From: Amoeboaphelidium occidentale
Taxonomy: Eukaryota
Reading direction: 5' to 3'
DNA: 47,156 nucleotides
NCBI GenBank assembly: GCA_023515795.1
Contig: JALGPX010000091.1
Location: 1 to 47,156 of the forward strand
In this document: in pieces, positions 13,931-14,286 of the stretch
Numbering within the stretch: position 1 is the stretch's first letter
How the letters are laid out: every line of letters begins with the position of its first letter
Position numbers and translations under genes: made by a program
The notes under the pieces: model-generated
Seen by the model: only the letters and a program-made list of their open reading frames with translations
The model's database searches: none
What the model was told of the DNA's origin: nothing

Positions 13931-14000
13931 TTAGAAGAGCGTTACACGAATCGCCGATTTCTCGGCTACGCTGGCGGAGACTGCACAAGTAAATATACGA
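13931..14000 (-). ncRNA. Candidate omegaRNA of the second Fanzor element
   Basis: Downstream of the RuvC-III remnant. GCCGA-GAAA-TCGGC hairpin (13953-13966) enclosed by an AGCGT/ACGCT stem (13968-72 / 13938-42). Confidence 0.55.
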
Positions 14001-14286
14001 GCATAATCACCTGTCTTTTACCTTTGTTTGCATTCAAATCCAAGAAAACGTGTCTGATATTTCGTGCAGCGTTAATGTCCCTGTTCCAAACAGTTCAGCC
14101 ATCTGAATTACAGACTTTAACCGCCCGAAACTTTGTCTGTTTCAACTCATGTAAACAGAATGAACATAACTTGCTGGGCTCAGAGCGAGCTAGATATACC
14201 CCCTTTAAGAAAGCGCTTTCGCACTCCAGCTCGCAGCATGTAGACGCTTGAGCTGGAGCTCTGCGCGATAAAAGCGTGTGGAGTTT
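13931..14286 (-). mobile_element. Degenerate non-autonomous Fanzor-derived element (C-terminal fragment plus structured ends)
   Basis: Minus-strand translation from 14175: SKLCSFCLHELKQTKFRAVKVCNSDG*TVWNRDINAARNIRHVFLDLNANKGKR, colinear with the first Fanzor C-terminus. Structured sequence on both sides; flanked by TCTTAC at 13925-30 and 14287-92. Element boundaries are tentative. Confidence 0.8.

Follow-up and report, generated by a model that had tools for sequence, protein, structure and literature searches.

A probable nuclease-less derivative of a second Fanzor1 family in Amoeboaphelidium occidentale and a predicted stem in its zinc-finger/RuvC-III codons

The minus-strand sequence lying between the convergent Vps51 and MBOAT genes of A. 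occidentale is probably the 3' end, without the nuclease, of a member of a second Fanzor1 family, and it is likely contained in a ghost-like, non-autonomous element of about 360 bp. The locus belongs to a window of 47,156 nucleotides, i.e. the whole stretch of DNA that was analysed, which shows a compact, intron-poor eukaryotic gene organisation. The two strongest structures of the locus, a foldback upstream of the protein remnant and a stem predicted inside the coding sequence, were both absent from an earlier, sequence-only reading of the same DNA; the coding stem is the best-supported structure of the locus. The coordinates of the features are collected in Table 1.

Table 1. Features of the Fanzor1 remnant locus and of its neighbours (positions in the window)
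Feature	Position	Strand	Basis
Remnant of the Fanzor1 coding sequence: TNB zinc finger and RuvC-III (WNRD)	14014..14178	-	tblastn, PF07282, NCBIfam, Fanzor1 profile, sister proteins
Predicted sense-strand stem in the coding remnant, arms 14127-14119 and 14095-14087	14087..14127	-	folding, family covariation
36-nt in-frame segment (12 codons), in P0027, absent from P0024-P0026	13978..14013	-	sister protein comparison
GCCGA-GAAA-TCGGC hairpin, opening at the last base of the stop 13968-13966	13953..13966	-	pattern scan, folding
Non-Fanzor sequence directly 5' of the break, common to the metagenomic copy P0025	14179..14204	-	residue comparison
Imperfect foldback of high GC content; perfect closing stem of 7 bp and perfect core of 9 bp (14224-14232 with 14250-14258)	14205..14292	.	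folding
GTAAGA, candidate target-site duplication, weak	13925..13930, also 14292-14287	-	one of 4 shared 6-mers between flanks
Host MBOAT_2 gene, convergent neighbour	12708..13880	+	PF13813, E 1.8e-6
Host Vps51 gene; last exon end 14314	14314..17132	-	PF08700, E 3e-23, and ORFs
First Fanzor1 (family 1), incomplete at the edge of the window; its ORF changes frame near 740	79..1591	+	ORFs, profile and protein searches

The peptide that the sequence-only reading had written for the minus strand is indeed present. In tblastn comparison with the first Fanzor of the window 23 of 54 residues were identical (43%, E 2e-5, positions 14175-14014), and PF07282 was matched with an E value of 1.3e-5 and 25.7 bits, just below the cut-off of 26.3. 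Three NCBIfam TnpB models matched the remnant at E values between 7e-4 and 3e-3. A Fanzor1 C-terminus profile, built from 41 relatives, recognised 14178-14014 with an iE of 7.6e-14, and its only other match in the window was the first Fanzor. The comparison with Fanzor/TnpB profiles, a failure of which that reading had named as a refutation, was positive. Upstream of the remnant no Fanzor match was obtained in any frame of the window, either by tblastn or with the profile.

When the remnant was used in a search of short proteins, two of the three candidates matched, namely P0024 of A. occidentale (89%) and P0025 from JGI (78%); in the search of longer proteins with the fragment none of the nine candidates scored. 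The cluster of P0024 also contains P0026 and P0027, and P0027 was found as a member of this cluster. It is a 325-aa A. occidentale Fanzor1 model with LDPG, TNG, NEHNTS and WNRD motifs. The Fanzor1 signatures given in sections of PMC10711439 and PMC13565253 are DPG, a TDG-like WED motif and a Glu just upstream of the zinc finger, and P0027 carries all of them. Between the Ser that precedes the first Cys and the stop at 13968-13966, it shares 64 of 69 residues with the remnant, whereas its identity to the family-1 protein P0004 is only 33%. In a tree of 43 short rows, which has few columns and many open forks, family 2 (support 89/90) and family 1 (99/98) formed separate clusters. The remnant is below 90% identity to the Fanzor at 79-1591 (the 43% of the fragment and the 33% of P0027) and therefore falls outside family 1. 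The sequence comparisons thus confirm a second Fanzor1 family in addition to the first Fanzor of the window, in agreement with the earlier proposal of a different subfamily and of at least two Fanzor families. A TnpB origin, suggested by the resemblance of the residues before the first Cys to a TnpB motif in locus L001, was ruled out by the tree and by P0027.

The remnant is without the RuvC-I Asp and the RuvC-II Glu, only the third Asp of the D-E-D triad being left. Since the break lies just after the RuvC-II Glu, two of the three catalytic residues are lost and the product cannot cut; no nuclease can be encoded by the remnant. In the C4 zinc finger three of the four Cys residues are kept, while the fourth is replaced by Gly, and an in-frame TGA is found at 14097-14095, where the sister proteins carry Leu. 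In all, 5 of 69 residues differ from P0027, i.e. one stop (at a Leu) and four substitutions, thus the coding part is little decayed. The former view that the coding part had decayed while the RNA stems remained intact was not confirmed. The end of the homology had been placed correctly at about 14178, since compared with P0027 none of 10 codons match upstream of this point and 64 of 69 match downstream. A one-base frameshift, by which the tail would be read as R-P-G-D-Y-A-R, a family motif present in 28 of 41 relatives, was contradicted by the sister proteins.

The sequence directly upstream of the break connects the remnant to P0025. Six of the first 10 residues of P0025 are identical to the upstream read-through of the remnant and the other four differ by single-base changes; none of 10 read-through residues of 14179-14204 match P0027. 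P0025 also has the Cys-to-Gly change and was grouped with the remnant at 94/74. The homology of P0024 likewise begins at KLC, and of the four short family members three have their first residue within one or two codons of the same place. The upstream junction common to P0025 and the remnant makes it likely that the element reaches further than 13931-14178, and the limits first assigned to it were too narrow, the foldback adjoining this junction as well. The sister proteins and the shared junction back the earlier idea of a non-autonomous element, and a remnant of the second Fanzor1 family, probably non-autonomous, is supported by these comparisons. As in ghost or non-autonomous Fanzor elements, the Fz ORF is not functional here, and the species has longer copies as well. 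However, P0025 has the other tail type and shares with the remnant 49 of 73 residues. Since the remnant has its junction in common with P0025 but its tail in common with P0027, a recombination or a repeated event is needed. P0025 may represent this locus in a different strain; it is the one other protein seen with the same junction.

The foldback at 14205-14292 gave a z of -3.4 on the minus and -3.8 on the plus strand (1 of 200 shuffles as stable in each case), and none of 400 random windows reached its energy. The windows overlapping it were the top 5 of the 4260 windows of the 47 kb in stability. It matched no Rfam family, tRNA or viral sequence and had no similarity to any Fanzor 3' region or fetched Fanzor locus. 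It abuts the break and has the same raised GC content, and we infer that it is likely the left-end module of the element. The remnant is situated in a gap of 433 nt between the stop of MBOAT_2 (13880) and that of Vps51 (14314), compared with 35 and 25 nt in the two other convergent gene pairs of the window; subtraction of 362 nt would leave 71 nt. The GC content is 0.45 over 13931-14292 as opposed to 0.36 and 0.19 in the flanks. Taken together, the foldback, the GC contrast and the size of the gap suggest an insert of about 360 bp, approximately 14292-13931, with the foldback probably included.

The ends of this element have a strong foldback on the left and no TIR. The best inverted match between the flanks or ends of the element was equalled in 416 of 500 shuffles, and no significant TSD or direct repeat was found at the element edges. 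By estimate, it is rather unlikely that GTAAGA is a true target-site duplication. The right end could be anywhere in 13881-13950, and the 3' end formerly set at 13931 is left with neither a TIR nor a significant TSD in its support. A resemblance seen by eye among the foldback on the left, the hairpin region on the right and the first Fanzor at its 3' end was also considered and did not exceed that of shuffled sequences in four scoring schemes (181-926 of 1000). The exact hairpin pattern had no match in metagenome contigs, other exact or tight DNA patterns for copies of the element found no locus in DNA pattern scans that included viral contigs, and the family-1 protein P0004 had no match in viral contigs. 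At the locus itself no Rfam family reached the gathering score (one chance match, E 3.4), no tRNA was detected, and no promoter or terminator pattern was seen in a scan using bacterial models, which have little relevance here.

The GCCGA-GAAA-TCGGC hairpin within an outer stem, described in the sequence-only reading, could be located at 13966-13953; its outer stem (AGCGT/ACGCT) pairs 13972-13968 with 13942-13938, and the hairpin is predicted with a probability of about 0.9. Statistically, however, this region does not stand out. The segment 14016-13931 folds into two hairpins (about 80 nt) at a z of -0.1, 87 of 200 shuffles being as stable, its energy was reached by 35 of 400 random windows, and the analysed window holds 7 GNRA hairpins with stems of at least 5 bp. 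When the folded segment was shifted in the 3' direction (13884-13969), by which a further hairpin of the flank is added, the z was about -2.2. No match of the GAAA hairpin was found among 146 Fanzor 3' regions, and the relatives had no common structure after the R-P tail (23 rows).

The match with P0027 runs as far as the stop, the final base of which is the first of the hairpin. The back-translated C-terminal decapeptide of P0026 aligned best at 13981-13952, an alignment equalled by one random window in 300 and by one shuffle in 300. On these two grounds the hairpin is assigned to the element, and it lies on a degenerate version of the last codons of the family. In GtFz1, as stated in a part of PMC10432273, the omegaRNA overlaps the C-terminal codons (17 aa). 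Thus the hairpin is positioned where an omegaRNA overlapping the end of the ORF would lie, as in GtFz1, and it is regarded only as a candidate stem of the omegaRNA scaffold. The neighbouring 36-nt segment holds a GT..AG stretch (14010-13981), although no GT-AG excision works that would convert one tail type into the other. A G-U-rich hairpin at 14014-13985 gave a z of -2.7 (3 of 200 shuffles), in a segment picked after the hairpin had been seen.

The coding stem is a predicted helix of 9 bp in which codons that precede the third Cys pair with the region of the W in the WNRD motif. In the remnant 9 of 9 pairs are formed, with pair probabilities of 0.86-0.99 in three contexts, and the register is such that third codon positions pair with each other. 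In order to compare it with other Fanzor1 genes, sliding 90-nt windows were folded in 24 fetched Fanzor1 loci and the first Fanzor. The window from 60 nt before to 30 nt after the W codon gave a mean z of -2.9, with 17 of 25 loci at or below -2, as opposed to -0.9 to 0 in the 17 other windows; in this position the antisense strand gave -1.4 and the remnant -3.2. In the random synonymous recoding control the mean z was -2.1 (12 of 25 at or below -2). Since an excess remains after recoding, the protein sequence alone does not explain the stem. The control of the remnant's own sequence was modest (z -1.5, 6 of 100), and the first Fanzor of the window has 8 of the 9 pairs but no folding excess (z about 0.2-0.3).

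Covariation was measured in an alignment of 26 Fanzor1 rows (A2), the stem having been picked out manually from the folds of these sequences taken one at a time. In this alignment 76.5% of the cells pair as opposed to 67.0% after shuffling and 28-56% in slid controls, and the covariation was 0.333 as opposed to 0.174 in shuffled columns (0 of 500); two of the five measures were not significant (309 of 500 and 36 of 500). The central wobble-wobble pair was formed in 25 of 26 rows by five pair types (shuffle mean 13.5, 0 of 5000), this being the best of 65 pairs tested. RNAalifold returned no consensus and no pairs for the stem alignment. Because of this null result, and since the structure had been read by hand from the same rows, the stem was tested out of sample on new viral loci. 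An anchor tried at the beginning dropped 98 of 121 loci; with the His/Tyr that precedes the third Cys by five residues as anchor, 112 of 120 were retained. Thus the 121 loci, after removal of one duplicate and 8 unanchored ones, left 112, which were collapsed to 17 at less than 90% identity. The mean z of these 17 was -3.3 (12 of 17), and two pairs covaried at 2 of 2000 and 1 of 2000. The central pair was formed in 16 of 17 rows at less than 90% identity, which is not significant (163 of 2000), and in 31 of 31 at less than 95% identity (1 of 2000). Column shuffles ignore relatedness, thus none of these shuffle counts is a probability. Six of six further Fanzor-type loci fold at the same place (z -2.2 to -4.7), three of them being near-copies, and the stem was absent in four of five bacterial TnpB loci. 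The viral loci (L038-L158) also gave a second folding peak (mean z -2.25, 9 of 16) beyond the stop, some 120-210 nt downstream of the W codon, where omegaRNAs are expected.

These data show, at the level of predicted structure, a coding stem which is conserved and covarying across Fanzor1 and intact in the remnant. The G-U pairs and the strand bias point to the predicted stem acting as sense RNA; alternatively, it may act as a single-stranded DNA hairpin. The stem lies in codons which the remnant kept anyway, thus its presence is no sign of selection on this copy. Our literature search yielded no description of such a stem, although the supplements of PMC10432273 and PMC10530073 may show one, and a passage of PMC10530073 refers to structure that extends into the coding regions of Fanzors. 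A stem in the zinc-finger codons is not described in the consulted parts of the Fanzor1 nuclease paper (PMC11423790).

Among known systems the ghost Spu-1 and partial Fz loci of Spizellomyces punctatus are alike in being short, nuclease-less derivatives of a multi-copy Fanzor1 family (sections of PMC10432273 and PMC13434818). In both cases longer copies are present in the genome and the 3' region, where the omegaRNA is made, is kept. According to the relevant section of PMC10432273, S. punctatus has 134 ghost loci and 42 Fanzor loci, of which 19 are full-length, and the ghost scaffolds work with SpuFz1. As described there, these ghosts are about 550 nt long, without an ORF, with 30-nt inverted repeats, and their RNAs were tested, whereas the A. 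occidentale element has about 360 nt and 55-70 codons with the conserved coding stem, no TIR was found in it, and it is known from sequence alone. The Fanzor1 Helitron2-type elements CRe-1/2/3 of Chlamydomonas reinhardtii resemble it in their 5'-truncated or internally deleted copies with kept 3' ends, and in having hairpins at both ends and no ordinary TIRs, as far as the account in PMC3627910 goes; 20 extra fRNA copies are reported in this alga (passages of PMC3627910 and PMC10530073). The asymmetric TIR, the TTTT target and the 7-19 bp TSD given for the CRe elements were none of them demonstrated at the A. occidentale locus, where each end has a hairpin and the two ends give no significant inverted match to each other. 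The best PDB matches of P0027 and P0001 were SpuFz1, GtFz1 and PpFz1 (8gkh, 9cer, 9cf0), which were weak (E 9e-4 to 0.1). P0027 is like these three in having the Glu shortly before the zinc finger and WNRD. The omegaRNA precursor of ISDra2 TnpB, of which parts of PMC10097598 give the details, has 247 nt and overlaps the gene from just after the first CxxC, and the remnant spans a similar stretch; the 5' part of this precursor is trimmed and dispensable. Inheritance of the coding stem from TnpB is not supported, given its absence in most of the TnpB loci.

The probable origin of the element would be an internal deletion which joined a folded left-end module to the last approximately 250 nt of a family-2 parent, the deleted product then being copied in trans by some transposase. 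Vps51 has the same orientation as the remnant and ends about 20 nt upstream of the foldback, thus read-through from it would supply a sense transcript of the element with no need for a promoter of its own. The coding stem is predicted to be a 5' structure by which the omegaRNA precursor is processed or stabilised; the scaffold would lie at the 3' end, and 14-15 nt of the flank would be the guide. By analogy with the S. punctatus ghosts, an intact family-2 Fanzor1 could load this RNA and would then cut the empty allele, and repair would copy the element back; such homing is proposed for OMEGA systems in a section of PMC13565253. Whether this particular copy makes a working guide RNA is doubtful, though the chance is a real one. 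The broader idea that the stem is a 5' processing or protecting element, and the aphelid ghost a minimal guide-producing unit (foldback, coding stem, scaffold) fed by host read-through, is put forward tentatively, as a possibility on the weaker side. Parts of PMC10432273 and PMC13434818 state that a 275-nt 5' extension or an MS2 stem-loop raised the activity or editing of SpuFz1. By our own count about 35 residues follow WNRD in SpuFz1, thus the 275-nt extension would include the stem codons. If the idea is true, the stem would explain why this extension raises editing, and it would be lost whenever Fanzor genes are codon-optimised.

The locus could also be a one-off 5'-truncated insertion or a local fossil of family 2, in which case the foldback would be a separate small element or host sequence, P0025 an allele, and no functional RNA would be made. 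This explanation is somewhat unlikely. It would agree with the lack of a detectable TIR or TSD, with the unremarkable 3' fold and with a foldback unlike any Fanzor 3' region or fetched locus, and Chlamydomonas commonly has Fanzor1 copies which are truncated on the 5' side and intact at the 3' end (as reported in part of PMC3627910). However, the foldback abuts the break and shares its raised GC, and an allelic P0025 is awkward since it has the other tail type and is less similar to the remnant than the paralogue P0027 is. A quite improbable alternative is that a long omegaRNA precursor was copied into DNA, by reverse transcription or by repair on an RNA template, and gave rise to the remnant. 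The 5' end of the remnant would then be the RNA 5' end, and for this reason the break would fall just before the coding stem. The stretch 14178-13931 has 248 nt from the first CxxC, near the 247 nt of the ISDra2 omegaRNA, which overlaps residues 335-408 (in the portion of PMC10097598 consulted), and the common starting point of three of the four short family members would also be in accord with it. On the other hand, neither a poly(A) tract nor a TSD is seen in the sequence, the GT..AG segment is retained, the known Fanzor1 omegaRNAs have 75-150 nt (from a section of PMC11423790), and the stem is missing in most bacterial TnpB loci; the shared upstream junction fits a DNA deletion better.

According to the sequence-only reading, the guide of the element would be antisense to the MBOAT 3' UTR, and a host-retained stand-alone guide or antisense RNA that regulates MBOAT would follow this line. 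By its position, the flank on the 3' side of the element is indeed complementary to the 3' region of MBOAT, and ghost scaffolds do work with protein supplied in trans (stated in part of PMC10432273). But this is mere geometry, since any element inserted between convergent genes would have such complementarity. The target of Fanzors is DNA that adjoins a TAM (passages of PMC10711439 and PMC13565253), thus the natural target would be the empty-site DNA and not the MBOAT mRNA. Moreover, the copy looks young, with its 5 changes in 69 residues, no sign of conservation is seen, and the 3' flank seed has just two chance-level 11-nt matches elsewhere in the window. Regulation of MBOAT is thus very improbable indeed, and the nuclease-less element of the second Fanzor1 family is preferred.

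Considered alone, the locus is ordinary transposon debris of a described type, a ghost or partial Fanzor. With it a second Fanzor1 family and a deleted derivative are documented in an aphelid, and a literature search for Amoeboaphelidium together with Fanzor returned no paper. The new detail is the stem within the coding sequence of Fanzor1 genes, for which covariation was observed in two sets of independent origin. The release of Fanzor omegaRNAs from mRNA was called open in a passage of a 2023 preprint (PMC10690162). The coding stem is a candidate reason for the effect of the 5' extension in SpuFz1, which can be precisely tested by synonymous mutation, and it is the stem that gives the locus its lasting value.

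Some further observations were made on the first Fanzor and on other parts of the window. The first Fanzor has A. occidentale relatives at 72-96% identity; its frame split (734-747) falls at an A run near 733-740, through which the database relatives read. Its 3' region at 1640-1720 folds at a z of -2.6 (2 of 200 shuffles). The plus-strand segment 1676-1720 has a common 16-nt stretch, 15 identical and opening a hairpin, with the metagenomic Fanzor L023 at about 750-815; this likeness is borderline (BLAST E 0.29; 4 of 200 shuffles, 25 loci tested), and the hairpin is possibly the right end of family 1. The A. occidentale models P0020 and P0022 contain the family-1 Fanzor as two or three head-to-tail partial repeats per gene model, each beginning near the N-terminal Cys/His knuckle. 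The repeats suggest tandem arrays of the element, such as rolling-circle carriers make.

An intergenic pair of about 130 nt, 84% identical and 226 nt apart, is found at 22207-22333 and 22433-22561, and it had no Rfam or tRNA match at standard thresholds. The segments 24229-24441 and 43694-43998 are 99% identical duplications flanking the two N gaps and are likely assembly artefacts. The related convergent genes at 41941-43344 (plus strand) and about 43460-44580 (minus strand) encode Cys-rich, Thr-rich, apparently secreted proteins, and the end of the product of 41941-43344 is presumably a C-type lectin-like stretch. The next ORF after this pair, at 44681-45943, encodes a secreted-type aspartic protease. 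Finally, the product of the minus-strand gene at 6750-9944 has repeated F-x-x-A-x-G-K motifs and a C-terminal region which we take to resemble BRCA2/Brh2.
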